64,000 bases of DNA from Amphiscolops sp. MND2022 (taxonomy: Eukaryota): contig OZ076409.1 of NCBI GenBank assembly GCA_964187785.1, forward strand, positions 55,740,001-55,804,000, read 5' to 3'. The notes beneath the pieces are model-generated. The model made no database searches. It saw nothing but the letters and a program-made list of their open reading frames with translations, and was not told where the DNA came from. Each line of letters opens with the position of its first letter. Positions within the stretch are counted from its first letter, which is position 1. Positions 2-62,300 of this stretch are shown one piece after another. The translations under genes and the position numbers were made by a program.

Positions 2-3000
2 AATTTCCCATTCTTCTCCATGCAATTGAAAACAGCGGATCACAAGTACACCAACGTCATGGAACCCATCTGCGCACGGGGGGATATAACAATTCCCCCC
101 AATGATAGACACATGGTCTCTATGTATTCTCAACTATACGATGACGCGAATGTCACTGGAATTCTTCAACCGAGCAATGACCTTGCAGATGATGGAGATA
201 TAACATTCTGTGCTGCTCTTGTCACTTTGACTCAAGGTCAGCTTACGATCCACGTGAACAACTTCAGTGACCAATCACACACCATCAAAAGAGGTTCACA
301 CATCGCTAATTTCTCCGTCCTCAAGCCAGAACAGTTGAAATACGTCAAACCCATTGACCCAGTGACCACATGGCACCTTTTACAAGATAATCCCGAGAAT
401 GCCGCCTACTATGCCAGCAGTCTCATCAAATCTCCGAAAACTGACGATAGTAGCGAACACTATTGGTTTCCTACTCCGGAAGACCCCGGAGACCCTCAAA
501 CACATACACCAATACAACAACGGATCCTGAAAGAATTACAAAACCTACAGGAATTAGAGAAACTTAACCCTCAAGATGACATTGAGTCCAGAAAACAGTT
601 TCTCGCCAACTTTGATTGGGCAGACTCGACGCTCAACCCAACGGAAATTGCCCAAATTGAAGAACTCCTGGTTGAATTTCATGACATTTTTGCTCGACAC
701 CGCTTCGATATAGGCATGAATGAGGATTTCAAGATCAAACTGACTCCTAAAGATGACTCCCCTGCCTATAGTCAAAGTTTGCCCACACCAATTAACCTCA
801 AAGAAGACATTCTTGTTGAATTAGCACTACTACACCGATATGGGATTATAACAACACTCCCGTTCTCAAAATACGCCAGTCCTATTTTTGCCCAGAAAAA
901 ACCCAATGGCAAGCTGCGACTCTTGGTCGACCTCCGCAAGATCAACAAATTGATTTCTGACGACTACATCAACAATAACCATCCAGTCAGTACGCTAACC
1001 GATGCCGCGCAACACATGGCAGGCAAACGATTATTCTGCAAACTAGACTGTTCTCAAGCATATCACTGCCTCCAGATGGCTGACCAGAGGTCAATTGAGA
1101 TGCTGGCTTTCAACTTCGCCAGCAGAACCTTTGCCTATCGCAGACTTGCGCAAGGTCTGAGTAGGGCCCTGTCAGCCTTCTCGAGCTTTATGCGCGAATA
1201 TTTGGACAAAGTGATCAAAGCAGACCAATGCGCTCAGTATGTTGATGATATTGGGATTGCTGCCAACAACACTACGCAACTTATCAACAACCTTCGGGCA
1301 ACTTTTGAGTGCATTAGGACTGCAGGTCTTAAACTAACGATGCATAAATGCCACTTTGGTGCCAAAGAAATTGACTTCCTGGGACGCACTATCACTCCTG
1401 AAGGAGTGCGGCCACAACGACCCAGAGTCCAAAACTTCCTAGAGAAAACGAAATTCCCAAAGTCCAAAAAAGCACTCCAAAGATACTTGGGCTTCCTGAA
1501 CTATTACCGTAACTACATTCCAAGGCTTCCAGAACAACTGACACCCTTTTTCAAACTACTGAAAAATGATGCAAAGGTCACAGTCACACCTGATCTGTTA
1601 GAACAATTCACCGATATCAACAAAGCTCTTGACCGATGTTGCGAACTTGCACTCAAACAACCTCTGCCCAATAAACAAATAGCATTAATGACTGATGCTA
1701 GTTTCTCGGCAGCAGGTTATGCAGTTCTCATCGAGGACGATCCAATGCAGAAATATAGTTCAACGCGAAAAGCGTTTGCACCAATAGCATATGGATCCAA
1801 GACCTTTAGTCCCGCCCAACTGAAAATGTCCATCTATGCAAAAGAATTCCTAGCGATATTCTTTGCCTTCAAGGAGTTTGGACACATCTTTTGGGGGACC
1901 CCGAAACCGGTGACCATACTAACAGACAACAAATCAGTTACTCGCTTTTTTCAAACTAAAATCATTCCGCCAACTTTGTGGAATGCGTGTGACTACGTTA
2001 TCCAGTTCAATTTCACAATTGCCCATATACCAGGCAAAAACAACACCGCAGCCGACTACTTGTCACGATTAGAAATCTGCCCTAAAGAGAAACTCATACT
2101 CCGTATACGGGAGGATATATCGACAACACCTATCGAACTCAACGTCCAGTCGGCTGGAGTAATCGAAGAAGACCAGATATTCCTTACAGACGAAGATGAG
2201 GAAACTGAAGAGCAAATATGGCAACGGAAAAAGGACGCTAGGTCCCACCCGACGAACCAAGTACCTGATATTTCCTTTGAGAAACTCAGTGTACACCAAG
2301 GCATTTCTTCCCAACAGATAACATCACAAAGACTATTAAACAGAACCACCTTGGCTATTGAACAGCAAAACGACGTAATATTACACCATCTACGCCTTAA
2401 ACTACAGAAAGAAGACTATTCGGAAACGATTCTACAACAGGATCCACGTTACCGGCATTACTGCAGTCAAATCGACCGTCTGTCCGTACAGGACGACATT
2501 GTCATTCGAGACTACTATGACGAAACAGGCAATGTACAATATCGACAGGCACTTTTACCCAAACACCTAGTGTCTGAATTACTCCAATCATTACACGGAT
2601 CGGCGAACAAACATCCAGGAATCTCCAAGATGCTCTACGAAATCCGCCAAAAATATTACTATCCTGGAATTGCAAAAATCGTCAAAAAATGGGTCCTAGG
2701 ATGCGAAACATGCATAAAAGACAAAAGAACCACAAATCCATCAATAACGCCGTAACTACTCAATTTACCCGAATGGGATCTTGGTCCTGAGGATGCCTTA
2801 CAGATTGATCTCTTACCTAATCTTCCCCCGAGTGGAGGATATGAAAACATCATTACTGCACTTGACGTATTCTCCAGATACTTATTTGCCTATCCAGTCA
2901 CCGACGCATCAGCCTCTAGTACCGCAAAAGTGATTATCGACATCATGACGAGACATGCCTACCTTCCGACGACCTTAATTACTGACAAAGGCACGGCATT

Positions 3001-4237
3001 TACATCACGTCTAGTCGACGAGGTGGCAAAAATATTGGGAATTCAGATCAAATGTGCAACAACGAAGCATCCGCAGACGATAGGTAAATTAGAGAGAACT
3101 CACGCCAGCCTCAAGTGTAACCTCAAGATGGCTTCGGGCGAATATCGGCGCCAATGGCATAAGTATCTACCATTGGCCGTCCTCAACTACAATACCACCT
3201 ATCATTCAAGCATCGGATGCGAACCTTCCAGGATTTTTCACGGAAGGATACCATATAATATCTTAGACCATCGGTTAGGACTAAATCCAAACCCAAAGAT
3301 CCTACCTACAACAGATTTTGCCGAAGAATTACAAAGGCGTACTCAAATTCTCATTGACAGGACGAAGAAAAATATTATGCAATCGTACTCAAAATATAAA
3401 GAATATTATGACCGCAAAGCGAAAGCAGCTCCGTTACACCAGGGTGATTACTGCTTTATACTTCAGCCGCTAGCGGACCACCAAGGGTCAAAAATCCCGT
3501 TCCGAGAATTCCTGTGGACTGGACCCTATATCATCGGAAAAGTTTTGCCAAATGAAAACTACATCGTCAGAAAACTCAATTCTAATAAAACACAAATCTT
3601 ACACCGTATTAGATTACGAAAATATACTCCCAATACAGACATACGTGATGTCCGTCCAGAGGGAAATTTACAGGCCGACGATGAAATTATTATACCACAG
3701 GATGATCTTTACATTATTTCTTGGGAGACTGAATTTGATGATTTCCCACTGAATTCCGATTTCAAAAATGCTTCCGACGATCCTTCAAGGAATTCTGATC
3801 AACGGGACGCCATAATTACCGATTTAGACCCTCGGTCTACGAGACACGACCGAAATACTGATGACGCAGCTACTGAGCAGCGCAGAGACCAACTCGACGA
3901 ATTGGACCCTCGGTCCACTAGACTGCAACAAGATACTAACTCAGAGGAGTCTGAGCAACTACCTGGGCAATCAACTGAAATTGCGTCCGAGACCGACCTT
4001 GAGTCAACCGGACAGCAATCAAATACTGATTCAGAACCTGATACACCCACCTCCAGGGGCCCCTCAGAGGCGGGAAACCCTGATTTTTCAAATCCTAGAG
4101 GGAGGGATATAATCGTGCCCGATTTATCAGATAGAGAAACAGACGATTCAGTTGTAGAGAATGAAAGTCCTCGGGGAGGAAAATACAATCTACGCCCTAA
4201 CCCTACCCCCAACTTTACTGATGAATATAGATACTAG
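2..4237 (+). pseudogene. pol: Gypsy Pol polyprotein (dUTPase-like linker, RT, RNase H, integrase with GPY/F motif) with one in-frame TAA at 2753-2755
   Basis: Frame is open from the window start. RT: LRLLVDLRKIN, LDCSQAY, YVDD. RNase H: TDAS, KEFLAI, TDNKS, NTAADYLSR. Integrase zinc finger H..HPG..CETC. ORFs 20-2755 and 2930-4237 are in the same frame, and read-through gives ITP*LLNLPEWDLGPEDALQIDLL..DVFSRY..TDKG..LERTH (DDE) and WTGPY. Confidence 0.93.
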
Positions 4238-4600
4238 TCAGGAAAATTGAATTATTTGCCCCGTTATTTCTTCTTTAACAAATATCTTTTTTCTTGGGGC
4301 TCGAACTGATTTAACAGCAGAATAAAATTCAGTGCCAAAACGACACAAACAGACGACCAATAATACAGAAATACAATCCAACAGCCATAAATAAAACAAC
4401 AAAGAAGAAAATGAACAAATGTACAGTCTAGAAACAGATGCACATAAATACAATTAAAATTTAGAACTGGTTGCAGACAAGAGGTTTTCAGCTGATTGGC
4501 TTAATTCGCTCCGGGTCAATAAGTGGCTCATCTTTTTAGATACTTTGGACTTCTTATACTCAGCAGACTTAGTAACATTAGAGGTTTTGGACGAAGGATC

Positions 4601-7600
4601 TTAATTTCGATTGCGCTGGCAGGTTCCATCGGGATCCAACCGCTCAAGGATTTCGGCACGAGCAAAGAAATCTACACTGTCCCAGGGGCTATAAATATCT
4701 GACGTCCCAACTCCAACGAAAGTAGGCTCCAATTGCAAGAAAGCAGCAACGGACTGATCGGAACTGACAGCTTCCACGCTATAAGGCACGTTTTGGAAAT
4801 AAGATTGCACAGGTAACACCACGTCTACAAAACCACTTGTGGGATCGTCAGAATCAACTGAACCGAACTTGACTGCAGGTAGGGTCTGGAAAGGCTCGTC
4901 GAGACGCAAACAAGCCCAGCGGAAAAGCTTGAGTAGCAACGGGCGACTCAGGAGGGTAGCTTGCTCGATCAGGAAAGCAACGGTATCCCGGATGAAAAGA
5001 GTAGGTTGACATAATTCTGGATACCTGCGTCGGAGATCATCAACAAACGACGCATACTCCTCTTGACATTCAATTTCTTGTTCCAATGAAAAGTGCCCCC
5101 GGAGTCGGAAGCTGGTGAACAGCTGAGAAAAGCAGTACATTGCGTGCGGTAGAGGTTCATGCAACAGCGTATCCAGATCAAAACTACCTAGGCCTTTCAT
5201 TAGATCAGTAGTAAGTGTCTTCTGGTTTCGGACGGAACTGAACAGGTGAGAAACGTAACTCCTGGCAGATCTCCCGAAATCGTCCCTGTTCTTATTTGCC
5301 AATGCATCAAGTGGCATCCCCTGGTCCTTTTTGTCTCGGATGTCTTTTTCTGCCATGGCCCTGCAAGCGACCCGAAGTCGAGAACCCAATTTGATCCGGG
5401 AGATGAACTCGGAGACTGTGAGAGCGGTTACGCTCTTGATATCCAAATTCAAGATAGCAGTCCAATTTTGTTCGTCTGGTAAATCTACAGGGTTGGAACA
5501 TCTTCGAGCGAGCTTGAACAAATATTGGCACAATTGCCGGTACAAGTAAAAGTTGCGGTCCTTGCGTCCACTAAGGCTGATGGCGAAACTCTTTGCATCT
5601 AAACATCACAAGCCACTTACTAACGTAGTCAACCAGACGCGAAATATACAAACAAAATTACTAAAATGCACTCTATGAGAGGATATTTCAGAAAACCGAA
5701 GATTGTAGTTAAAAAACTTCTCCTAGCACAATAAGAAACAACATTTACTAACAATCCCGGGCAAGAATCTGGAAAAGTTCGAGTTTGGTAGTGAACAGGT
5801 CGTCATACACAATGGACCACTCCAAACCTTGTGGCTGAAAGGAATAAAACCTGGTATCTAAAAGTGAACATAGGCGAACCTTCAATACGAAAGACACAAG
5901 GTAATTACCTGATTCTTCACTCCTTGCATCTCTTGAGTAACTGTAGCTGATCCCAAATATTCTAAGACTGCATCCCAGTTAGATAACAATTCCTGACACA
6001 TCACGTGAAGCTTAGCGTAGTCAAGTTTACAACTACGGATGGCCTAAAAACAAGACGAATGGTCAGAGAGGAAATCTATAATATGACCGGACAGCAGGTC
6101 AAAAGAACATCTCCAACCTTTGAAAGTTCGGGCGCGAGGCTGAGACTGCCTCCTAGGAAGACCACAAGGTACTGCAGCACTGACACAAAGTTGATCCTCC
6201 CGAAGACACAATTGTTGCGCTTGTGCATTAACTTCTGGAGAGACAACTCCTCAAACCTTTGGGGGCTCTGGATCGCTCGGGGAAACAAAGAGCTTTTGTC
6301 CAACAATTGTACCAGCTCTAGTGAACATCCACTGCAGCAAACAAGAGTAGGGCTCGTCGAAATTGCAGCTAGCAGCCCACTCAGTAAATTGAGCTCTGCA
6401 GAACAACGTCCTAGCACACGTCCAGTCCGTTTGAGAAGGACCCTGCAGAGCTGCTTGTCCCTCCAGAAACGAAGGTGTAGGAAGAGAAACACACCCTTGA
6501 CCTCAAATTCAACAGCGTAATAGCCGTTAGAGACGACGTGATGTCCAATGTCTTCCAGCATTTGCACAAAGATGTGGTGGAAAAGCACCTAAAATGAAGA
6601 AAAATTTCAACTCAACCACCTAAAAGGAGGTATCCTGACGCTCAAGGAAGTCTCGAACCCTAGATTTATCTGGTAGGCTAACGTAGATTAAGGAGACTAG
6701 GTTTTATCATAGTAAAACTACTAACAGAAAGTCTCTCTTTGCCCCAATTGAAGTCAGAGAAGAGGGCTTGGTAATTCACAACAACGCCCACATCCTTCCA
6801 AAGCCTCCTGAGCAATCCAAGGTCACCGATTGAGGGTAAGAAGTGCCCGAGGACGGATATCTGGACTCGAACTCTATTATCTGAGGAGGACGTCATGTGC
6901 GTGCTGCCAGCCATAGCCTCGTGATAATAGGGGAGTTTCTCACCGATGTCGATTAGTTCTGCCTTCTTGAAGTGCTCATACTCCCTCCTGAGATCTTTGG
7001 GAGACAATATCAGACCTTTACCGTCTCGAACATGATGGTGGATGACTTTTGTGACCGGGTCTTCAACCGTAAGGTGTTCGTACCGCCACCTCTGGTCCTT
7101 ACGGAGATGACGTTCAGTCGAATGGTGTCTGAGGATTTCTTTAGCGCCGCGTCCATAAATTGAGATGTTCCCCTTACAAATCTGGCAATAGAATTTGTAA
7201 GGGTTCCACTTAGGGTCCATAGGACCGGATACAAATGTTCTTGTCCATGCCATTCCATCTAACATCTCATCTCTGAGAATCCTACTAGACCTTGGTACGG
7301 CTTTACGGGGGTTCTTGGACTTGACCTTTGGTGCAGGTTTCTTTTGCCCTTTTCCTTTTGTCTTGGCTGCTTCCTGCTTCAATTCTGCCAAGGTCTGGTT
7401 TCCAGGGCTTTCGCAGGTGGCAGAATTGGGGGTGGCAACTAGGTCAACACGACTGCTGCCAGCAACTGGAGGACTGGGAATTTGGACAGCGGACAATCGA
7501 CTCGAGAAATGTCCAGGATCAACATCGCTCCAGAACTCTCCCTCACTAGTTGCTCCTCTACTGTTGACGTCACGTCCACTGTCCTCGGCTCCATAAGACG

Positions 7601-8792
7601 TCAAGTCCCCTTCTGACCCAGTGGAACAAGAACGTAGGGATACCGGGCGATGCATTGGTCCTTTACTTCCAGATGGAGAATCACGGAGGCTCAACTGACT
7701 AGCACGTATAACGACGCTGTTAAGCATCTTAAATGATGCTCTTGCCGTCTCATCTGCAACGATTCGTAAAATGTGCCCAATTTGTTCCTGGTTGAGGGCG
7801 ATGGTTGGGTGTCCCTGCGGCAAATTAAATGAGGGGGTTTTCTCAAAATAGGTCCGAATTAATTCTTGACTATTGATAGACAGTGGGGCAGGCCCCCCGG
7901 TGCGATGGATTGCTTCCTCGGGAGAAACATAGCTAGTCTCACTCAGGGCAGGAGCAAAGTTTTTGACTGGAGCAGTAATAGCGTCAGCTAATGTTGACCT
8001 CTTGGGCTGAACGGACTCAGGGTCACTAATGGCCGGGACTTCTACTTCACTGCATGACATGGGTATGTCCTCTCCTGACGTAGCTCGGGACTGTGAATCA
8101 ATGGGGCTGGAAGTGGAGGCTCCGCTGACGACGGGGTGCTCACGTGCAGGGGCAAAGGTAAATTCCATTGGTAGAGCACTAATGTTGACTTTCCTCTTAG
8201 GGTGCTTACTGCCTTGTCCCTGATCGCGTACGCTGGAATGTAGAGGAGGGGTAGCGAGAGAAATCTTCTCCAGTTCTTGTTCATGAATCTCGGTAATTGG
8301 GTCGGCAGGTGGAGCTGTTGAATTCAGTTCTATGGGTTCGCTGATGCTGACATTAGGAGGGGTTGACAGAACGTCAGGCGCATCTTTCTTTCCCTGGGAG
8401 CACATAGCAGCAAATTTCCGAGAACAATAGGCACCCACACTTTCGTCGGAACCACTACTGGCAAACACAGAACCTCCTCGTTTGTAAATTTCTGCCAACA
8501 GGGATATGTTTTCAGCTTCACGCTTGACTTGAGCTACACCTAAACGTTCCGGTGTAGTGACCTCTGGTTCAGGCTGTTTCTGGGGAGAATATTCAGGCTC
8601 GGAAGAGGATAAGGTAATCTCAATCACTTCAATCTCATCTTCAGAGCGGCCACTAGATTGTTCTTCGACGTCTGCATTTTGTTGGCTTGTATCCATCACC
8701 TCTTCGTTTGGCTGAGTTGGTTGGCCGTTTGAATTCTCTCCTAAAAGGAAAGAAATAAATGAGCGCGGTTGACTTCCTGCATAAAAATCCAT
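4601..8792 (-). CDS. Antisense spliced gene inside the retrotransposon; predicted exons 8792-6726, 6588-6118, 6043-5909, 5834-5753, 5598-4601 (~1250 aa); disordered N-terminus, BED-type zinc finger, possible hAT-transposase-derived body
   Basis: Four GT..AG introns (137, 74, 74, 154 nt) with pyrimidine-rich acceptors join three long minus-strand ORFs and two small exons in frame (phases 0,0,0,1; 3753 nt total). Zinc-finger motif FYCQICKGNISIYGRGAKEILRHHSTERH. The N-terminus is uncertain (acceptor-like TTTCCTTTTAG near 8742). The frame stays open for 48 more codons past TAA 4601-4603, to 4454. Confidence 0.75.
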
Positions 8793-10555
8793 CTTGCCGC
8801 AAATTTATGAAAACTTCCGGAAGTAGATTAAACACAATGTTCACGTTCGTGACAGAACATTTCATGATGGAGGAAGTGGCAAAGTTAGAATTAAACCCTG
8901 ATCAAGTTTATTTCTAATGAAATTAAAAGAACCAACCTGATGTCTCATCCATATGGAAAGACAGAATTGATGTGACTCAGTCCTTTACTAATATCCGCTG
9001 GGTATTGAAGAGTAGGATCAGTTACACGATAGTTGACTGTAAGTCAAGTCCGCCCACGTAGGTTAGATCCTCAAAGCTCCCAAGATTATACATTCACTCT
9101 ATGGGAAACAACTGTTTAGCTGCTAAATTGCCTCGGAAATAGTGGATGGCCTTACTCGGAAAGCTGGTACTAAGACCCAAGGTCAGAGAGACTGCATGGG
9201 AATGCTGAAATATTCTATTACAACGCGAGTGATAATACTTGAGGTTGATTACTCAGCAGTTGAAACGATAAAATTTAAATGCAGCAATGGTTTGTGGAAA
9301 GGAAAACTCAAACTGATTGCGATGAGACCCGATACTTTGAAACCCAAGGTCAGAGAGACAGCACTAAATTACGAAGGTAAATCAGTACAGCTCAAGTGAT
9401 GCTACTTGAATATCAAATAATAAGGAGAATGCAATGCAATTGAATTGAAAGATCACAACTAGAATAATGTACGGAATTTTACTGAGTGAATCAAATGAAA
9501 AGATGTCAACTGATACTAAATGTCACGCCAGTTACTAAGACAATCTAATTCTTATGTTTACTTAACCAGACTGCTTCAATATACTAACACGCTGTACCGT
9601 CCAAGTGACGTCATGAACACATTTGGACTGAAAGTACACTAGACAGCACTCCTTTACCAGCATAGTAGCACTTGACTAATTAGACGCAAGGTCCACTTGA
9701 CTGCAATCAAATACCTGCATACTACTATTCACACTTAATAAAGAGTAACTTAATACAATTATGACGTCATCATCACCTTCTTACCTGAAGCGGTGTTAAT
9801 GGCATTATGATACTCCTCAGTACTCACTAGCAATTATGAAACCATCTCCATCCCTTCTCTGAATTTATCCGATATGTACAATTCGTTGCTACTAATTCCT
9901 AACATCAAAGAGTCGTGGCTACATGTAAACTTGCTCAAAGTTATCAATTATCTTGACCAACGTGACAATAAGTCCCGTACCTGCCAGCGGTGTACTTATT
10001 ACAGGTTAATATATTAAAAATTAACAAATCTTCATTTGGTTCAACGCTCCGTGCAATTTCATTCCATAGAATTACAAACCATTTCATGAAATTTAGTCAG
10101 TTCTCTTTACTCAGTAATTTTACTCGATTTCACACATTATTATCATCCACTCATTCAGAAAGCTAATTGGTCAGACCTACTACTGCAGTCGGCCTGACTA
10201 AAGGTCTTTGATGTCAATAGTTTACAGAGAATTAACACTAACACCTCTTATAGCGTCAATGAGGTGTCTTTGAAAAGGAAAGTAAACTCAACTCAAGAGG
10301 CAATTAATAAACTCTTACAGGCCGTAAACTCTAGATTGTTGATGACCATTCACCCAAATTGAAACCTATAAGGAAATAGTTGGGGAAGATGCGGGTAAAT
10401 TTCCCGCTCAAACATTCCCGCGGAAACGGGAGTAGACCTATAGTCAGTCTGACTTTACCTCGTCATTCTTACCCTAAAGTTCTCTCTGAATCGGTCGCAA
10501 AGAAACTCAAATCAAAATTGCTAAAAAACTTCTCATTCAACGTTTCCACAAGGAA

Positions 10556-11380
10556 ATGTCTCTATAATTTTCTTTGGAGGAACACGATAGACCTCTAGTT
10601 AGCCTTTCGTACCTGTCATCCGATGAAGAAATGGAAGTAGACTCAGTGTCAGTTGCAGATGGACCTGACGGTCAAGATTCTGACGACGATATACAAGTTC
10701 TTGCTTGTTATCGTGAAAATATACCCTTCCCTCCACAACTCATCGCAGGTCGGGCAATGACGACAGAGTTAGCACATTGCTTGAACGACCTGAACATACC
10801 AGATGACGACTTAATTGGATCAGCAAGCACTTTTACAGATCCGTCACAAGACTTGCTTGATTGGTGTGTAGGTGGCCCCCCGAGAACTTCTTATGGCTCA
10901 AATGCGAATGACCACCCAATAAGGTATTGTGGCCAGCTAAACCCAATACGGGACTCCCCATGGTCACCTCCGCCAGAAGACCAAGGACCCTCAGTTGACA
11001 CCTACCAGCCTATGCAACCTCACGGTTCAGCAGACTCATGGTTCGGCAATTCACACATCACAGGCCTAGGAATTAGCGTCAGTGGAAGCTGTGGCCAACC
11101 GAATGAGACGACCCAAACTGGTTGTGTGATCTGTGGGAAATCATCTGCCGACATTAAAGAAGAAATAACACTGGGGTACCTTGAACAGACACACATTCCC
11201 GGAGAGACTTATGAGCAGCGGATTGCTAGACGTGATGCATTCCAGGCAGGTATGAAAGCAGGGACGTTCATACTTGTACCGGGGGGAGTGTCGCAAGCTG
11301 CCGCTTGTGACGGCGTCCTATACCAAATGATGCCAGAAGGTAATGAGACACTACCAGCACCCGGGGTACTACCTATCTAA
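10556..11380 (+). CDS. Accessory ORF of unknown function spanning the PPT/3' LTR junction
   Basis: 268-codon open frame 10574-11380 with an acidic N-terminus and a CVIC motif. An in-frame ATG at 10556 is followed by TAA at 10565-10567; the next ATG is at 10631. Codons LVPGGVSQ overlap the PPT and LTR start. Confidence 0.6.
11281..11288 (+). other. Polypurine tract of the large gypsy element
   Basis: GGGGGGAG lies immediately before TGTCGCAAG, the inferred LTR start. Confidence 0.65.
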
Positions 11381-12034
11381 AACAAACTCTGAAACAAACT
11401 TTAGCATTTATTCTGATAGTTTAATATTAGTTTCATACATGTAACGACCGAAGTATTAGCGCTAAACATGTAATTTTTATGCTACTATTTAGACCTAAAG
11501 TCAAACTGACAGCATTCAATCAGTACATTTATTCAATTGCTATTATTGATTTGTTACTATTTAGAATTTCCCATTGATGAAATTACTTACAATTAGTCTG
11601 TACCTAAAGTACATCACTTAGTTAACGATGCAACACTTAGCAAATTAACTCAACTGCTGTTAAACGATGTTTAAAGAGTACTTTAAGACACTTTTCTGAG
11701 CAGTTAATTAACTGGTACTCTACTGCAGTCAAATTGACCTGTGGTCACAAGTACTTGTTGACCAATCAGAGTGAAGCACCAGTCTATCATTGCAGTCATG
11801 CTGACGCATGGTCAAATTTGGAATTTCATTGAGTATTGATGTTACCAATGCATGAAAGGTTGTTTTTAACCTGAATTTGAATACATGTAAAGATACCCAC
11901 TGTTTGTTTGATGCTATTTATATCTCTTCATTTGTGTGACGTAATGTCAAAACCTTCAGTCTATTTTTAGAACTAGTGACCTAATAATGAAACCGGGGCT
12001 ATATTTAGAATGATATCACCCTAAATTCAGTTCC

Positions 12035-12078
12035 TGACACGCAAAATACTGCGTGTCATGCAGTATAAACTATATATA
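12035..12078 (+). promoter_or_regulatory. Putative LTR core promoter: 9-bp inverted repeat followed by TATA-like boxes
   Basis: TGACACGCA-N6-TGCGTGTCA (12035-12058) then TATAAACTATATATA. ACTGCG(A)GTGTCATGC plus TATATAAA is conserved in the solo LTR at ~40036-40068, upstream of the homologous ORF. Confidence 0.5.
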
Positions 12079-12192
12079 CGCGGAATTTGTAAGAAAAGGA
12101 TTCATTCATTGATTGAGAACGCTACGATACAAAACCGTTCAATTTGTTACTGTTGATTAATTCACCGTTGAAATCAAACCCATTTCTTGAAA

Positions 12193-12838
12193 ATGCCTTC
12201 AACTAGAAAGCAGAAAGCAAGAGAGAAACGTTCCAGACAGTCTGACGTAATGTCTGATATAGAAAATCTTGATGTAATGTTAGGAAATTATCAGAGAGAG
12301 AATAATGAATTCCGAAGTGAGAATAATGAAAATACATTAGACCAAAGGTCTGATGAAAGGGAAGGCCAGGATCGAAATGTGGAAGACTATCAAACCTTCC
12401 TGAATAACAATCCAAGTGAAAATAGTTGTTTGACCATTGAAACTAGTAGAGTTATTAGTTCTGAAATTTCATCACAGATGTCAAGGAAATTTCAGGAAAT
12501 GCAAACTAGTCTAAATTCTCAGATATTGGATGTTATAAACACTGCAATTGACACTAGGGTGCTTCCCAGCATCAAAAATGCTGTTAGGAGACAGAATTCA
12601 GCGAGAAATACAAGTTTAGACCTTCGGTCAGATGGACTGCATGAAGATACTGCCGCCCCAGGAAATTCTCAGAAGGACCTTCGGTCGATTAGACTGCATC
12701 CGGAAAATACCAACAAAACGTACAAGGATGCTCAAAATGAGTTTCCGAGATTAATTTCAATCAAAAATAACCAAACAAATCATCGTAGAGAGAATTCAGG
12801 TGATTCTCAAGTTAGTGATGATGACTATGGTTATGACA
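12193..12838 (+). CDS. N-terminal part of ORF1/gag-like protein encoded within the LTR, cut off at the LTR end
   Basis: MPSTRKQKAREKRSRQSDVMSDIENLDVMLG..., homologous to MSTTRKQKNKARKSRDADMLSDIDNMDVML at 40181. The frame is open right up to the terminal CA (DYGYD). Confidence 0.6.
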
Positions 12839-15911: not shown

Positions 15912-17015
15912 TCAACCGTGGCCAAACTTGCGTACCGCGTCTTGCTCTTCGGGTGACAAGAACAAACTTGCTTCTTCAACCCATTCAGGTACAAGTACAG
16001 ATTGTTCCCATTTCCTCACTCCTGCCGAAAAACAAGGTTGTAAGGTGGCAGCTGGCCCTTCGCTCAGGGTGTAATACATCATGTAGAAATTACACATCTC
16101 ATCCTCAGAAGTTGGGCCTATGGGAACTGTCTTGTCAGTGGGGTTTGTGTAAGTGCATCGTGCAAACAGACGATCAGAGGGCTCTATGATAATATCTTCC
16201 TGGCAGGGATAGAAAGTCTGTTCCATTTTTGGGCTCATTCGTCCAATCATAGTCCAGGTGTTTTGATGGTTCCATGGATTGGTTTTAACTTGGAAGCCAC
16301 TGATCAAGACCCCGTAGCTGTGGGCGTGGGTCCTGAATGCGAACGGTACAATTGAATGCTCTCTCGGGATTTCCTCCGGTGGGCAAACGATATCCAAAGT
16401 TTCAAGGTCTCCGGGACCTCGATTTGGACGAATCACACCTCCAGATCCCAGCAGAAGAACTCCTCCTGAAAGTTCAGTTGGATTCTTCTGGTACTCGATG
16501 TCAATTCCTGAGTAATCTTTCAACGCTGGGTCTTTTTCAAATTTACTCACGTCCTTGTAATGAACCTGTATTACCAAATACTTGACGTTCGTGTCTTTAC
16601 CAATCTTGAAAGAAACATCTTCAGGTAACTTGTAGCTGCCAGCTTGCATGGCTTCTGCAAAAAGGATATTGGATCCTCCTCGGCCGCACACTCCCCCTTG
16701 TACTAGATCCACTGTATCTTCGTCGGCGGCGCTTTTACTCATCTCACCACACAACCAAACGTCTTTTTCAACCCCAGGGGTTTGACATCCGTACAGAAGT
16801 ATATGGTGAGCAGCCCCGTTGTCATCAGCGGGTGAAAATCCTCTGATGTAATAGCTGGTATCGGGGTCCAGTTTTTTGGCCGTGCAAACGTATTCGTTTG
16901 GGTACGATGGTTTAAATCCGGGTAACCTCACCGTTTCATTATGTAAGCATAAACAGAGCTGAACCGATACCACCAGAAGCACTGTGAGATGGAAGCAAAA
17001 TTGTACTGAAATCAT
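15912..17015 (-). CDS. PHM: Peptidylglycine alpha-hydroxylating monooxygenase, monofunctional and secreted, 367 aa
   Basis: Hydrophobic signal peptide; CuH ligands AHHILLYGC and QVHY; CuM ligands FRTHAH and EMCNFYMMYY; QTFYP. No PAL or transmembrane domain. The CDS is uninterrupted. Confidence 0.95.
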   Translation of the reverse strand: MISVQFCFHLTVLLVVSVQLCLCLHNETVRLPGFKPSYPNEYVCTAKKLDPDTSYYIRGFSPADDNGAAHHILLYGCQTPGVEKDVWLCGEMSKSAADEDTVDLVQGGVCGRGGSNILFAEAMQAGSYKLPEDVSFKIGKDTNVKYLVIQVHYKDVSKFEKDPALKDYSGIDIEYQKNPTELSGGVLLLGSGGVIRPNRGPGDLETLDIVCPPEEIPREHSIVPFAFRTHAHSYGVLISGFQVKTNPWNHQNTWTMIGRMSPKMEQTFYPCQEDIIIEPSDRLFARCTYTNPTDKTVPIGPTSEDEMCNFYMMYYTLSEGPAATLQPCFSAGVRKWEQSVLVPEWVEEASLFLSPEEQDAVRKFGHG

Positions 17016-17062
17016 CTTATTCTAGAGAACATGCACTGTTTGGGGGTTCGGTGATTCTCAAC

Positions 17063-53350: not shown

Positions 53351-56300
53351 ATGGCGGCCAATCAGAAAACGAAGGTAGCTGTGGCAGGAGGATGCGGTTT
53401 CATTGGATCTCATTTGGCTAAAAGGTATAAACAGTTTTTATATAAAAACCATATATTTTTTAACCAATTGCGCTTTTAAATGTCGTCTACGTTTCCTCAG
53501 AGTATGTACACATCATTTAGCTCCAATCAAATTTCCAAAATCAGTGTAATATCTCGCAGTGGAATGAATGCACTGATTGTCTTTGGAGTTTGTAAAAATT
53601 CCAGTCATTGCTAAATTCCAAACTTTGATTACTCCGGGTTGGGTGCTACAGAAAACATTGAGAATCTCATGAAAACTCACAGTATACTTACAAACTAATG
53701 GCTGACATCGCACTTGACGGCTCGTATTCACTGTTGAAGTATAACAAGAAGTGAACGTCTCCAACAGGGGCCCCGCTCAAACTCAAAAAGCGCAAAAATT
53801 GGAAAACACAGAGATATTAACTTTCCTCTCCTAATCAGCTCATGAAAAGCTTTGAAATTTTCTTTGGCGGTTCTAGTTGTTTTTAGTCAGCGCTTTCTGC
53901 GAGAAAAAAGCAAGAATCTTACAATCAGTCGCTCTTTTTTTCAGATGCCACCATTTCTATAAGATACAGTTTCTTTAGGGATCCTCTAGGGATTAGGAAT
54001 CCATCCTACAATGGAATTTTCAGTATTGCGAGATTTATGAAAGTTTCCTCATTAGTTGTACCTGTGCATTTACACGACTTTGCTTTTCATGAGCTTTGAG
54101 CGGGGTACCGACATGTGCCGTTCCTGCTTGTTTCATTTTAAATCATTACGTATTTCGCTGGGTAGGCAAACTGCACATATCGTAAAAAATACGAGAAGAT
54201 AAGCTTTAGAGTTTCTTATGTTCGCGTATTTTACGACATGGCAAAGTTTGGAGACGACAAAGTTCTGAAATCATGCAGCAGTTACCGAGGCAATTACCTC
54301 AAAAGTTCAACTTCAAGTTCAAATTATAGAAACTGTCGTAACGATAGAAGTCAACATTGAACGGTAGACATCGCTTGATATTTCAAATTTACGCATTTTG
54401 AAGTTTAATTTCATCTCTATAATTAATTTTTAATCCAGTGAACATGGAGGTTTTATGATCATTTACGTCAACATTGAAGACGAATAGATGGATGGACTTT
54501 AAAGATACTGATATTTAATTGTGCTATTTCAGTTTGAAAGAAGACGGTTTCCACGTAAAAGTGGCTGACTGGAAACCGAATGACTTTATGGAAGCTAGCG
54601 AATTTTGTGACGAAATGGAAATCTGTGACTTGAGACAACTCTCCAGCTGCTTGAAGGTAAGTTCGTCACTACTTTTCACACCAATAGTATTTACATTGAT
54701 CCTGCGAAACCAGTTTGTGCAGTAAAAAAATTTTGCAAGCTTTTTCACTGCGAGTTTGTTAAAAAATATATCATAAACAAAGGCTTCCATAAAGCAGGCC
54801 AGCGTCTGCTTTCGGACTCTAGCAAACCATGAAACCACTTCCTTTGGTTTAGAGACACAAATGTGGAAATTAAGGTAGCTTTTAATGTTATATTAAACTG
54901 TTGTCTTTAATGTTAAATTGTAGTGATTTAGGTCATTTGACTTTAACCTTAACTCAGATATTAGGACGAATGTCGAACCTTTGAGAGGAACGAAAGATTG
55001 TTGTAAATATGTATTCAACTACCTGTTAACATCATATTCACAATTCTGGCATCAGAAAAGATTCGCAGTTAGTTCCCTTCAAAAGATACAGTCGTCAAAA
55101 TACATTTCTTCGAAAATAATCTGTTTTAACTATAACATGGCGCTGCGAGCTCTGGATCTTTAGAGACATCAAAAGATGTATTTCACAGCAAACTTTATGT
55201 CAGATTTTCCAGCATTAACGTAGAAGTCTACCTCAATATAATTTTTAGTAGCTGATAAAAATGTATTTTTTATTAACTATTCGGGTTACTAGTTTTTACT
55301 TCGAAAAACTGAAATTGTTGATTTTACTGTTGTCGAAAGAGTTAACTTTTTTCAGTTAGTAGAGGGATGCACTTACGTTTACAACTTGGCGGCTGACATG
55401 GGCGGAATGGGTTTCATTCAGAGCAACGAAAGCGTCATCTTCTACAACAACGCAATGATCTCCTTCAACATGCTGGAGGCAGGCCGCAGAAGTGGCGTCA
55501 AAAAGTACTTCTATGCCTCCTCTGCATGTGCATACAGTGAAGACAAGCAGGTGAAATTTCTCTCACAGTTGTAATCAATTAATTCATTGATCGGTATCTT
55601 ACCGAGAAAGTTACTGCTCCTCCTTCCCAAAATCAATTACTTCGAGTGTTGTTGATCGACTTCATGTTGTCTTTTTCAGTTAAAGTGCTTATTCTTTTTG
55701 CTATCGCTGGTCGAATCTGCTGGAAGTTTCCACATGGTGTAGGCCTGCATACAGTGTAGTTTTTAGGAGTCGGAAAAAATTTTCGACTACTTATGCAATC
55801 GTGCTGTTTTTTTTTTGTTTTTTCTCCCGACTTTTTCATGAAAATTTCAAATTTCTCAAAAACTGTCCATACGATTTTCACGAAATTTTGCACAGTCATT
55901 CTACACCCAAAGGGGCCCCTGCGTGTGCAGAGGCATCAAAATCGTATGGCCTGGATGTGAGAAACATAGCCAAAATTAGCCCAAAAATGGCCAAAAACAG
56001 CCATTTTTCGACTTTTTTCGATTTTCTCAAAAACTGTCCATACGATTCGAATGAAATTTTCTACAGTTATTCTACACCATATTAGAGTCCTATATGTGCA
56101 GTGGCATCGAAATCGTATGGCTGGGATGTGAGAAACATAGCCAAAATTAGCCCAAAAATGGCCAAAAAACAGTCATTTTTCGATTTTTTTTCGATTTTCT
56201 CAAAAAACTGTCCATACGATTCGAACGAAATTTTCTACAGTTATTCTACACCATATTAGAGTCCTATATGTGCAATGGCATCAAAATCGTATGGCTGGGA

Positions 56301-59300
56301 TGTGAGAAACATAGCCAAAATTAGCCCAAAAATGGCCAAAAACAGCCATTTTTCGACTTTTTTCGATTTTCTCAAAAACTGTCCATACGATTCGAATGAA
56401 ATTTTCTACAGTTATTCTACACCATATTAGAGTCCTATATGTGCAGTGGCATCGAAATCGTATGGCTGGGATGTGAGAAACATAGCCAAAATTAGCCCAA
56501 AAATGGCCAAAAAACAGTCATTTTTCGATTTTTTTTTCGATTTTCTCAAAAAACTGTCCATACGATTCGAACGAAATTTTCTACAGTCATTCTGCACCAT
56601 ATTATGGTCCTTTATGTGCAATTTCATTAAATTCGTATTGCTGAGATGTGAGAAACATAGCCAAATTTAGCCCAAAAATGGCCAAAAAACAGTCATTTTT
56701 CGATTTTTCACAAACTGTTCATACGATTCGAACGAAAGCGAGTCAGAAGGAAAAAGACTTAAGCCGACTCCTTTACCGCATATGCGGCTCTGGTTAAGAG
56801 TCGGAAAAAATGTTTCGACTACTTATGCAATCGTGTCGTTTTTTTTCTCCCGACCTTTTAAGAAAAATTTCAACTTTCCCAAAAACTGTCCATACGATTT
56901 TTATAAAATTTTGCACAGCCATTCTACACCCCAAGGGGCACCTGCGTGTGCAATGGCATCAAAATCGTATGACTGGAATGTGAGAAACATGGCCAAAATT
57001 ATCCCAAAATGGCCAAAAAACTCGATTTTTTTCGATTTTCTGAAAAACTCTCCATAAGATTCGAACGAAATTTTCTACAGTCATTCTACACCATGATATG
57101 GTCCTATGTGTGCAATTTTAATAATTTCGTATGACTGGGATTCGAGCGAGTCAGGAGAAAAAGAACAGAGTCCACTCCTTTACCGCATATACGGCTCTGG
57201 TTTATAGGTTTTTAAACCTAGTAAATTCAGTGAGCTTCCAGTGGTAAAACATGTAGAATTACACTGCAGTTTCCACTATTGAGATTGAAATCTAAAACAT
57301 TTCCTACTTCATTACCTACACGGTCTCAGTGTTTTTACAATTTCATTTTACAACTACATCATCTGATGAAATCACCGGTTATCAAACAGCACGCTGAAGA
57401 TGACGCTAGTTTGTTGTTTACTTTGTGAACAAAGTCAACTCGCATTAAAATAAACTCGCAGTGAAAATTAAAACACCTTGAGTCTTGTAAAAAAAGAACA
57501 GCTTCTTTAAAAACCTGCAAAATATCAAGGCTTATAACTGCCACAAAGTTTAGTAACATAGTCAAGATTGCTTGAACGTTCTACATGCTGCATGGAAACA
57601 TGGAGGCAATTTTTTAATCAAAAGATGAAAATTCAGGAAGCAAGCAAGGAAACAATTTGTAAAACTTCTAAGCAAATTGTAAAATATTTAAAGTACATCT
57701 ATGCATGTTGAAAAAGTTTCAAGCAGGTTACTGAATTTTTTAAAAATTAGGAAGCAAGAAAACGAAGGCTCCGACCTATCTTAAACATGCACTTGGAAAA
57801 CTTTATCAAATGCTTTCTCTTCATCTTGAAACAGTGTACTTCGTCAAAACAATGAATCCAATGGTAAAAAATCAAATCAACCAGTACAAAAAGAGACAGT
57901 TGAACACAAAAAAGACAGTTCAGAAGCCTTCAAAGCTTTTATCACATCATACGAAGTTACTAGGCCAGAAATAGATCGTAGCTTCAGAATTCTGCAAAAA
58001 CGAAACCAATTTTTATTCTGCAGACGTCGTCTAAAACTGGGTCCGCGTCTGAAGCACTCCAACTGCAAGGACGGTGAGACTAGAAAACTATCACAGTTGG
58101 AGAGTCCGAAACAAAACATTTCCTCAAACTTTGAGTCTTTGATACAAAGCCATACAGAAAGCAAGGTTTTCAAACGATTCAAAAGCAAGGGTTCAGGATA
58201 GAATGCCAAACTAGTCCCCAACTTTTTTAAGTCATTATTACAATCACTAAATTGAAAAAAATGTTTCGATAACGACGAAAACATGTTCGAACGTTTCAAA
58301 AAAGACTCCTATGATATTTGCTCTGGAAGATTTCAAAAACAACTTCGAATATTCCATGTGAAAACGCAAAAATGTAAGACATTAACCAAAGAGTTCTCGG
58401 GCTCAAAAACCAGTTTCCACTTTTCAAACGACTAAACGGACTCTAAAAGTTTGAAAAGTTGACGATTCACATGGAATTGGAATCGAAATGCTCACAAAGG
58501 CCTATAATAACATTGTTTCCAGTATTTCAATATATTTGTTAAGAACTTTGTGGCTGAATATGTTTCAAAAGTTTGAAATACCAACCAATCCAAACCGAAT
58601 ATTATAATATTCCGTTCTTAAAATAAATCCCTGAAAAAGCCGTAAAAAACTTCAAATGGAAAATGTTTTTTTTTCCAAACCCGAAAATTGATAATGATTT
58701 GGTTGTTCAAAAGTTTGCAAGCTGAAACAAACTTTCCCACAAAAACGTCCAGTTGTACGAATTTTTCTGCCACTCTAGCATTCGTTGACTATTTGTTTAC
58801 GTCCTGTAGCGTCTTTGATAAAAAAATTGAGGTTTTGCCCGCGAAAACTGCAAAATGTTGCTGGTGATTCCTCTTTAATTTCCTCGATAAGTATCTGAAA
58901 AATTAGGTGACGCAGCATGGAAATTTTGAACATTAAAATTTCTCTAAGCAGCTCCCGGAAACCTAATGATTTTGTCTTGCAAACATTAAAATAATGTAAA
59001 AATTTCGAGCACATTCAACTTGGAATGCTTCTTTCAAGCAGCTTGATAAAAGCCTAATAGAACAGGGAAATAATTTTGCCTGAACGTTTTTCCAATTGAG
59101 ATTGAGTAAGCGACTGTTATAGTGGCTTTTCATCGTTTTTTTGTCAATCCTGTCGATTTGACCAAAATGGGTCTTCGAAGTTCTACTGATAGTTGACGCT
59201 ATGGGTTTAGCGCTGGTTTTCTATACCATAGGCTCAAGGTTTGATATCAGGGACAATTTTTTGAGTTTTTTGAAAATTTTTTGCTTTACAAAAATGTCTT

Positions 59301-62300
59301 ATATGGAACCTTTGATATTATTAGTCAGCGTTTTCCAAGCCTAAAGTTTCCCAACTCGTTGTTTTTAGCACGGCGAGTGTTTTCAATTTTTCGGAAATTC
59401 TTGCAGGTTGAGCGCGGATTTCAAAAAAATACTTTTCCATGATGAGAAAATGCCATAAATTATTTCAAAACTTTTTAGAACCTGTAAAGGTTTTTATTGA
59501 GCCAGAAAAAAATAATTCCAATATTTGAGAACCGAACTTGTCTTCGCAGGTTGTTTCTCAAAACGGAAGTTATCCTCTTAAATTTATAAGCATGGGACCC
59601 GGACACAGAGTAGTCTAAATTCAGCGTTACTCTACTAAAAAGTTTCGCATAAACGTTCGATGTTTTTGTAGGTGAAGCCATCGAAGTTTGGTCCAGTATG
59701 CAATCCATGCATGCAGTTAAGCAAGCAGAATTTTTGATCCATTATTCAAATTTTTTAACAAATGTTTTTATTCTTTTCTTCAAAAAAAATTCTGTTGAGA
59801 GTCAAAAAAGATGAAAAATTGATGGCAAAAACTTCGTATGAGAGAACTAGCCTTAAGCGGTGCGTCGACTGATGCCGTTCCCAGCTTGTTAGTCCTTTTT
59901 ACTATTTTCTCAATTAAACATTTGGACATAAAAGAGTATAATTTACATTTTCCAATACTTTCTCGCACAAACTTTTCTTTTTTTTGACAGCACAAGGATT
60001 ATGCAAATAGCCATCGATTTGACAACATATTTCCAAAATTTTTCAAAATCGTGGCGGTAGGTTTGTTGTAAGTTGCAACAATCTTTTGGCTGCACTAATT
60101 TCCCAACTCTAAGTTAAAACAATCATATTGAATTTCAATATGCTAAAGTAACATGATTTTTATCCAATAATTGTTGTTGGCATTTTGAAATCCAATTTGA
60201 GCACTGCAAGAAGGTGCTGCAACTACCAGTAAATTGACTCTCGCCTCGAGGTTTCTAAAGCACGCCTCCTGTTGGCTTCATTATAATGAACATACATATA
60301 CATGTAAGCATAATTTGTTTGCGTTTTTAGGAGTCGGAAAAAATTTTCGACTACTTATGCAATCGTGTTGTTTTTTTAAGGCGACGAGCGAAGCGAGGGG
60401 CCTTATTGTTGGCGTTTAGTTTTTTTTTTCGCCAAAACGTGACATCCCTCTGCATTTGTAAAAGTTTCGGCTATTTTTCTCCAAGCCTATTTCTCCGAGA
60501 CAATTCAAAATTTCAAAAACAGAATCGCAAGTGAATGCCCTTTCTGGCCATGTAAGAAGGTTCGGAAAATTTTCCGCCTCGGCGATTATATTAGCTTCGA
60601 AAACATGATTTTTGCGAAAATTTTTAGGGTTTTTTACGATTTTGCGTAATTTTTCCACTTGAACCATATCGAACCGTCTCAAAATGGGTACCAACTGACG
60701 CAAGAGGATGTCTTTTTTAAGGTCGTGAAAGTTTCATTTCTTTACAATTATTGGGCGTTGAGAAAATGGCGAATAAAAATTGGGAATTTTTGGGGGTTTT
60801 TTTTCGAAAAAATTTTATAATGTAGATTTTGCTCAATTTTACTACTTAAACGAATCGAACCGGCTCATCATTAGTACCGACTGACGCACGAGGATGTCTT
60901 CTCTAAGCTCATGAAATTTTCATTATCCTACGATCATTGGTCGTTGAGAAAATGGCGAATAAAAAAATTGGAAAAATTTTGGGGTTTTTTGCGAAAAAAT
61001 TTTATAATGTAGATTTTGCTCAATTTTACTACTTAAACGAATCGAACCGGCTCATCATTAGTACCGACTGACGCAAGAGGATGTCTTCTCTAAGCTCATG
61101 AAATTTCGTTATCCTACGATCATTGGTCGTTGAGAAAATAGCGAATGTAAATTGGAAAAGTTTTTGGGTTGTTAGCGAAAAAATTTTCTAAATGTAGATT
61201 TGGCTCAATTTTACTACTTAAACGACACCGAACCGGCTTATAATTAGCTCCGACCGACGCAAGAAGATGTCTTCTCTAACCTCATGAAAGTTTCATTATC
61301 CTACGATCAATGGTCGTTGAGAAAATGGCGAATAAAAATCGCAACATTTTTGGGTTTTCCGAAAAAATTTTCGAAATGTAGATATTGCTCAATTTTTCTA
61401 CTTAAACAACATCGAACCGACTCATAATTAGCAACGACCGACGCAAGAGGAGGATGTCTTCTCTAATCTCATGAAAGTTTCATTATCCTATGATCATTGG
61501 TCGTTGAGAAAATGGTGAATAAAAATCGAAAATTTTATGAATTTTTTGCGACAAAAATCTGTTTTTTTTTTGCGAAAAAAGTATTTTGATGTACCCCATG
61601 CAATTGGGATGCTTGGGCGCACTTTCGTAGAACCCATTACTCCTGGGCTCTCTCAAAGAGGTCGTCTGCTCGGAGCCGTCGCGCAATGGCAGTTGCGCCT
61701 ATGTTTTTTATTTTTTTTCTCCCGACCTTTTCATGAAAATTTCAAATTTCTCAAAAACTGTCCAAACGATTTTTATAAAATTTCGCACAGTCATTCTACA
61801 CCCAACGGGGCCCATGCGTGCGCAATGGCATCAAAATCGTATGACTGGGTTGTGAGAAACATAGCCAAAATTAGCCCAAAAATGGCCGAAAAACAGCCAT
61901 TTTTCGACTTTTTTCGATTTTCTCAAAAACTGTCCATACGATTCGAACGAAATTTTCTACAGTTATTCTACACCATATTAGAGTCCTATATGTGCAATGG
62001 CATCAAAATCGTATGGCTGGGATGTGAGAAACATAGCCAAATTTAGCCCAAAAATGGCCAAAAAAAAACAGTCATTTTTCGATTTTTTTTCGATTTTCTC
62101 AAAAACTGTCCATACGATTCGAACGAAACTTTCTACAGTTATTCTACACCATATTAGAGTCCTATATGTGCAATGGCATCAAAATCGTATGGCTGGGATG
62201 TGAGAAACATAGCCAAAACTAGCCCAAAAGTGGTCAAAAAAGGGCCATTTTTCGACTTCAGAAGGAAAAAGACCTAAGCCGACTCCTTTACCGCACATGC

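Follow-up and report, generated by a model that had tools for sequence, protein, structure and literature searches.

An intron-bearing antisense gene, probably of hAT-like ancestry, in a Ty3/gypsy lineage of Amphiscolops

The stretch analyzed here, referred to as the window, comprises 64,000 nt of the 1.07-Gb genome of Amphiscolops sp. (G000:C1:55740001-55804000), and a 16,479-bp Ty3/gypsy long terminal repeat (LTR) retrotransposon extends into it. Between pol and the 3' LTR, this element carries a gene on the opposite strand that, judged from sequence comparisons, is almost certainly real, selected and spliced. An ancestry of its product among hAT-like transposases is probable but unproven, and the catalytic motifs of a transposase are lost in the aligned proteins. 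The antisense gene is composed of the following parts (positions in the window).

6726..8792, minus strand: exon 1, 689 codons; start conserved, a few conserved blocks within a long low-complexity region, then a basic stretch, the CCHH finger and a helical region
7107..7187, minus strand: zinc finger core C-x2-C...H-x5-H (BED-like or matrin-like)
6589..6725, minus strand: intron 1 (phase 0), 137 nt, GT-AG; missing in L191, P0248, P0251 and P0274
6118..6588, minus strand: exon 2, 157 codons; RNase H-like alpha/beta core by prediction, with no acidic residue conserved
6044..6117, minus strand: intron 2 (phase 0), 74 nt, GT-AG; missing in the D lineage and L191
5909..6043, minus strand: exon 3, 45 codons
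5835..5908, minus strand: intron 3 (phase 0), 74 nt, GT-AG; missing in L208, L214, L216 and L217
5753..5834, minus strand: exon 4, 27 codons plus 1 nt
5599..5752, minus strand: intron 4 (phase 1), 154 nt, GT-AG; missing in D5, D7, D8 and L219
4454..5598, minus strand: exon 5, helical region that weakly matches Hermes 378-571 in structure; the window copy stops early, at 4601-4603, the family stop being at 4454-4456

An initial annotation of this DNA had proposed five minus-strand exons, joined in frame through GT-AG introns and converging tail to tail with pol. Both points were reproduced: coordinates and phases (0, 0, 0 and 1) are as listed, all five exons are free of stops in the expected phase up to the premature stop, and 216 nt separate the gene end from the pol stop (4237). 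The proposed length of ~1250 amino acids (aa) applies to the window copy (1250 aa) but not to the family, as the premature stop had been overlooked; up to the family stop, the product measures ~1300 aa. Indeed, in 19 of 29 other close copies the frame continues for exactly 49 codons past the stop of the window copy, and in only one does it close at the same place. Exon 2 of the window copy is 5 codons shorter than in most copies (471 versus 486 nt). The earlier picture was also incomplete in that it missed the cassette swapping, the intron-less sublineage and the second accessory open reading frame (ORF) described below.

Exon boundaries were extrapolated from protein homology alone, with splice signals ignored, in 27 copies with 108 introns. 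Boundaries set in this way fall on GT..AG in 96 of the 108 introns (donors: 99 GT and 2 GC; acceptors: 105 AG). Introns measure 63-211 nt across copies, exons 3 and 4 are length-invariant in 27 of 27, and intron identity between distant subfamilies is 0.34-0.57 against a shuffle baseline of 0.44 ± 0.07. Each of the four introns is precisely absent in some relative. One sublineage (L221-L252; 81 matches, e.g., L222:922-3432) contains none of them and reads from the finger to the C-terminus without interruption; its single ORF is covered over the full length by the successive exon profiles, to within two residues, and introns upstream of the finger seem to be retained. Further, more distant intron-less relatives are P0348-P0358. 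Because a GT donor directly follows exon 2 in the most distant lineages sampled, repeated intron loss is the simpler reading. Precise loss is usually modelled as recombination with reverse-transcribed spliced mRNA (PMC2614967). If spliced antisense mRNA were now and then copied back in this manner, the scattered losses would be indirect evidence of transcription and splicing. The family offers a natural system to watch precise intron loss within a retroelement.

The gene is a regular component of its host lineage. A genome search with exon 5 returned 123 matches of 49-100% identity (121 scored of 7,493 candidates). The same position and orientation within LTR elements is found in 26 of 26 other copies fetched and in 10 of 10 elements of a lineage with ~70% identity in reverse transcriptase (RT), 3 of these 36 copies being partly deleted. 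For a sample independent of the gene, elements were picked by a 15-mer covering LTR and primer-binding site (PBS), which has 7,449 matches in the genome (control: 1). The stretches behind 40 of the first 41 listed PBS sites were taken (one was skipped, 2.7 kb before the next); integrase is present in 33 of these 40 and the antisense gene in 30 of those 33, including lineages with an RT that is only ~50% identical. The three integrase-bearing non-carriers comprise L199, which is truncated, and L190 and L204, both from a sister lineage that has an env-like gene. Two further stretches hold gene fragments without integrase. If all were full-length, the 7,449 PBS sites would correspond to up to about a tenth of the genome. 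Some insertions are very young, with LTR pairs up to 100% identical.

Ratios of nonsynonymous to synonymous substitution (dN/dS) were calculated by Nei-Gojobori in the antisense frame. They amount to 0.04-0.24 from the finger to exon 5 and to 0.09-0.32 in the low-complexity N-terminus, comparable to pol, which bears out the purifying selection that the initial annotation had put forward for checking. Between distant subfamilies, synonymous sites are saturated and the proportion of nonsynonymous differences is 0.10-0.35 in the folded exons. That the gene might be a one-off nested DNA transposon, or a set of chance open frames, would agree with the premature stop that breaks the window copy, but this reading is virtually ruled out by the lineage-wide position and orientation, purifying selection and conserved splice sites. 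Moreover, no pair of terminal inverted repeats (TIRs) above chance surrounds the gene: 4100-10600 holds only short inverted repeats at chance level, an 8-bp target-site duplication (TSD) not having been searched separately.

Between two groups of copies, A and B, gag, pol, the second accessory ORF (ORF270) and the LTR differ at a synonymous distance of 0.08-0.17, but the antisense cassettes are saturated (proportion of synonymous differences 0.72-0.82). Identity drops from ~95% to 50-82% only within 4250-9250, so the gene and ~450 bp upstream travel as a module. In these alignments, the whole gene with its ~450 bp upstream has evidently been exchanged between otherwise near-identical elements. 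Deeper in the phylogeny, the trees of exon 2 and of integrase are similar (both quick trees without a test, the former by FastTree), so that inheritance would be mostly vertical and the swaps shallow.

The ancestry of the protein was approached through its finger and its predicted structure. The finger, whose CCHH ligands are conserved across members, had been called a BED finger. The C-x2-C...H-x5-H pattern makes this name plausible, but Pfam zf-BED matches only 1 of 30 members (E 0.098, under the cut-off) and matrin/KIN17/ZN292-type models match more often. Alignment to hAT fingers with hhalign gives E 0.023-0.026, and H-x5-H fingers also head hAT-type ORFs of the same genome (L167, L174 and L177). 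Structures were predicted for single exons, folded separately. In exon 2, an RNase H-like core is predicted whose first strand follows MLEDIG; the earlier suggestion that the region after the finger represents a first catalytic strand without the usual Asp fits well, as this strand opens the core and carries no conserved Asp. Hermes is the best, though weak, Foldseek match of the predicted core, and two separate exons point to Hermes in the right, collinear order. In addition, the predicted succession of finger, helical linker, core and ~350-residue helical tail has the order and size of hAT domains.

The loss of catalytic motifs is seen across the alignments. In the predicted first and fourth strands, Asp is nowhere in the majority at an alignment position (the best residue is Glu, in 13 and 17 of 32), and no Glu is conserved at the place expected for Hermes E572. 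The [TS]RW motif occurs in none of 43 intron-less proteins versus 12 of 13 hAT rows; CxxH is found within residues 250-450 in 5 of the 43.

Several results weigh against a hAT-like ancestry. The structural matches to Hermes fall short of the significance marks. For exon 2, the top places by VIA go to retroviral integrase cores, and comparing profiles with those of hAT proteins from the same genome reveals nothing beyond the finger. Pfam gave no family above its cut-off, whether exons, alignment members or intron-less ORFs were compared, and PF05699 is not matched by the antisense protein. Its searches against PDB sequences gave nothing under E 0.1, while 13 hAT ORFs, the positive control, hit Hermes at E 2e-72. 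The ESM Atlas returned only leads, under 0.9; exon 5 found no match among longer proteins, and a DUF4371 search of the genome was empty, as was its control. Folding exons 2-3 together with exons 4-5, both from one copy of the D lineage, reached 0.30 (mark 0.34) and speaks neither for nor against this ancestry. Among the homologues listed (150 + 120 + 36; 623 hits) there is no named protein, those looked up being from ENA only, and the metagenome and viral contigs searched hold no relative. A real gene with a different RNase H-fold ancestor, from another DDE superfamily or from a host gene tamed from one, would explain the null profile comparisons, the finger's more frequent matches outside zf-BED and the VIA scores of integrases, Argonautes and ISCth4, which are at least as good; the Hermes matches would then be coincidental. 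We regard this as unlikely, since two exons point to Hermes independently and collinearly, the domain order and sizes are those of hAT, the genome's own hAT-type ORFs carry H-x5-H fingers, and the hAT subgroup presumably closest to the protein was missing from the loci sampled. Of the captured and domesticated transposase of the initial annotation, the family-wide, selected antisense gene is upheld; the hAT origin is weakly supported by the Hermes matches and lacks a profile link beyond the finger. The annotation's statement that the protein is not env-like is correct: the gene is antisense, the N-terminus is not hydrophobic, and the top 19-residue hydropathy is 1.85 (in a predicted helix of exon 2) versus 2.32 in the env-like ORF of L204.

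Two features lie upstream of the start codon.

8792..8823, minus strand: conserved block adjoining the ATG on its upstream side and including the palindrome CTTCCGGAAG (8814-8823); a likely promoter of the gene
8884..8918, plus strand: hairpin with a near-invariant 9-nt loop containing the palindrome TGATCA, with compensatory changes, ~100 nt beyond the promoter block

A palindrome of the CTTCCGGAAG type is kept next to the ATG in 25 of 25 C-lineage copies scanned, and the conserved block is likely the gene's own promoter, which we take to be of an ETS-like, TATA-less kind. In the hairpin, 96.7% of the alignment cells pair and 6 of 8 pairs show two-sided changes, versus at most 47.5% pairing in slid controls; because the structure was derived from the alignment used to score it, the controls are biased in its favour. 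G-U variants favour the genomic strand. The loop recurs in the most distant lineages but not in the D lineage, and two other conserved boxes flank the hairpin (8867-8877 and 8926-8940). It is likely an RNA dimerisation signal located in the 3' half of the element, presumably similar to the kissing loops of retroviruses. With a loop in common, different subfamilies could be packaged together and exchange cassettes. The upstream block was not retained as a snoRNA candidate (best Rfam match SNORD93 at E 3, far under the cut-off), and a short sense ORF in the block is not conserved. A search for repeated binding motifs yielded single-copy conserved boxes only, with no array.

How such a gene may have arisen can be sketched as follows. 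A DNA transposon, or its host-tamed gene, would have entered an ancestral element backwards, where its antisense introns would be invisible to the splicing of genomic RNA and survive reverse transcription. Transcribed from a promoter of its own just upstream of the ATG, the gene would have lost its nuclease and kept the finger and an oligomer scaffold for binding. Old divergent alleles may have been kept and swapped, as expected for a factor in conflict with host silencing. We favour a nuclear factor that sustains expression because of the finger, the basic stretches, the likely promoter of its own, the lineage-wide retention and the long-lived swapped alleles. Specifically, that the protein is a catalytically dead relative of hAT-type transposases, binding DNA or chromatin in the nucleus and keeping the copies of its own element expressed, is a prediction with slightly less than an even chance; the activator or anti-silencing role, taken on its own, is predicted just as tentatively. 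Whether an animal LTR lineage took a DNA transposase with its introns and disarmed it into a swappable, DNA-binding counter-silencing factor, with thousands of copies and many ancient alleles, is more doubtful. If true, the lineage would have turned a class II enzyme into a class I weapon against silencing by the host. To our knowledge, few transposon-encoded anti-silencing factors have been found, and the examples given in review come from plants.

Other functions are conceivable for the same gene. As a cofactor of integration or nuclear import, it could tether the complex of cDNA and integrase to chosen chromatin. The finger and the transposase-like scaffold could bind DNA or nucleosomes, the gene adjoins integrase in all copies, and nuclear import by accessory proteins has been proposed for plant antisense ORFs (PMC7264820). 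This is nevertheless improbable, as 28 five-base target duplications share no sequence by eye, and integrase kept ~98% identity when the cassette was exchanged, which is not expected if the two were in tightly co-evolving contact. About equally improbable is a self-repressor of the same ancestry that, like HTLV-1 HBZ, would damp transcription from the LTR and hold down the number of copies or leave them latent. HBZ is described as resembling such a gene in being antisense, spliced and transcribed from its own promoter (PMC10186651), and purifying selection across the lineage fits as well. Yet thousands of copies and very young insertions speak against self-repression, and long-kept divergent alleles with swapping would suit a host conflict better than simple autoregulation. 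Finally, the protein might interfere with hAT DNA transposons as a dominant negative, to the benefit of host or retrotransposon, given that dead transposases can poison oligomers and that the genome has many hAT copies (150 scored of 2215 candidates). Its divergence from the sampled hATs is too great for detectable similarity, which makes co-assembly unlikely and this role very improbable.

Antisense accessory genes are known from plant Retand/Grande elements; what seems to be new here is an intron-bearing, transposase-like animal version. The plant ORFs of Retand, Grande and RIRE2 (Tat-group Ty3/gypsy) likewise lie antisense between pol and the 3' LTR, occur lineage-wide and are predicted to bind DNA, and gene23 of Grande is described as nuclear with its own promoter (PMC11963269, PMC7264820). 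Retand-type ORFs encode TRP28 (PF04195) or other plant domains, and their origin is given as unknown in the passages concerned (PMC11963269, PMC7264820), whereas the Amphiscolops gene is an animal gene of ~1300 aa with four or more introns and a transposase-like layout, and its product does not match PF04195. The main text of the Retand paper does not contain the word 'intron' and leaves most antisense accessory ORFs of LTR retrotransposons without a known source (PMC7264820). A likely transposase source, together with the selection data, allelic diversity and intron-less forms, makes the question of ORF origin and function testable in an animal. A literature search judged on titles and the beginnings of abstracts revealed no antisense gene of this intron-containing, transposase-like kind in LTR elements of animals; Repbase, subscription journals or supplements may hold one.

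With hAT transposases such as Hermes, whose domain layout and BED binding have been described (PMC10368747), and with the tamed ZBED and SLEEPER proteins, the product shares the order of CCHH finger, predicted RNase H-like core and long helical region. It differs from hAT transposases in lacking conserved catalytic Asp/Glu, the RW motif, a PF05699 match and TIRs, and from all of these in its carrier, which is a retrotransposon and neither the host nor a DNA transposon. HTLV-1 HBZ and APH-2/3/4 are also spliced antisense genes in the 3' half of a retroelement and likely nuclear regulators, but HBZ is a small bZIP protein driven by the 3' LTR (PMC10186651), while the protein found here is unrelated and its likely promoter is internal, 2.5 kb from the LTR. 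VANC of VANDAL elements is a functional analogy only: a transposon-borne accessory protein, possibly family-specific in acting against silencing. It belongs to plant DNA transposons, relies on tandem motifs and has an experimentally shown anti-silencing effect (PMC6719617); no motif array was found here. LTR elements of bdelloid rotifers also have a dUTPase between protease (PR) and RT, as reported for basidiomycete elements too, and non-env third genes; these ORF3s are GDSL esterases, DEDDy exonucleases or env-like, and the main text contains neither 'intron' nor 'transposase' (PMC5408684). The plant mobile domain is likewise common to Gypsy elements and DNA transposons (MULE), but it is described as plant-only and is not a transposase core (PMC5418596).

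The host element runs in the order gag, PR, dUTPase-like domain, RT, RNase H and integrase, between 1550-bp LTRs (TG..CA, 98.6% identical) accompanied by a PBS, a polypurine tract (PPT) and a 5-bp TSD, the latter being found in 28 of 31 elements examined. Its remaining features place the antisense gene inside the element, upstream of PPT and 3' LTR, as annotated initially.

G000:C1:55736360-55737909, just upstream of the window: 5' LTR
2..4237, plus strand: pol (dUTPase-like, RT, RNase H, integrase), starting upstream of the window; in-frame stop at 2753-2755 in the window copy
10568..11380, plus strand: second accessory ORF (ORF270, ~270 aa), extending across the PPT as far as the LTR; conserved, disrupted close to its beginning in the window copy
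11277..11288, plus strand: PPT
11289..12838, plus strand: 3' LTR (TG..CA), 98.6% identical to the 5' LTR and containing the first ~215 gag codons
12839..12843, plus strand: TSD, 5 bp

The window copy is decayed, with stops in pol, in antisense exon 5 and near the start of the second accessory ORF. Across the C lineage, this ORF has 38-96% identity and a dN/dS of 0.10-0.24, indicating purifying selection. It has no Pfam match; its product is acidic, with CxxC and with hydrophobic-then-acidic stretches that we take to resemble SUMO-interacting motifs. In the D lineage (L141-L160), a different acidic ORF occupies its place, LTRs are longer (about 2.0-2.6 kb) and the N-terminal part of the antisense gene has extra introns. 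The start of gag lies inside the LTR (12193-12838, plus strand; ~215 codons per LTR), its frame continuing through the PBS; the encoded N-terminus may be similar to proteins of acoel worms. The dUTPase-like domain between protease and RT (68-320, plus strand; E 1.8e-4, just under the Pfam cut-off) is present in distant lineages too.

The sister lineage (L190, G000:C1:2604504-2614503; L204, C1:5383157-5393156) has the same PBS and a sense env-like gene, in pieces in both copies, with a hydrophobic start, a basic cleavage-like site and a C-terminal hydrophobic stretch. Its antisense ORFs form another set, containing His and Cys pairs and giving no Pfam match. Elsewhere in the genome, tandem elements with shared LTRs or 13-15 kb spacing occur (L055-L056, L039-L041 and G000:C10:2574606-2603479). 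Downstream of the element, the window contains an intron-less gene for a copper type II monooxygenase (PHM-like, peptidylglycine type) at 15912-17021 on the minus strand and, at 55800-62300, two satellite-like repeat families with periods of ~172 and ~186 nt.

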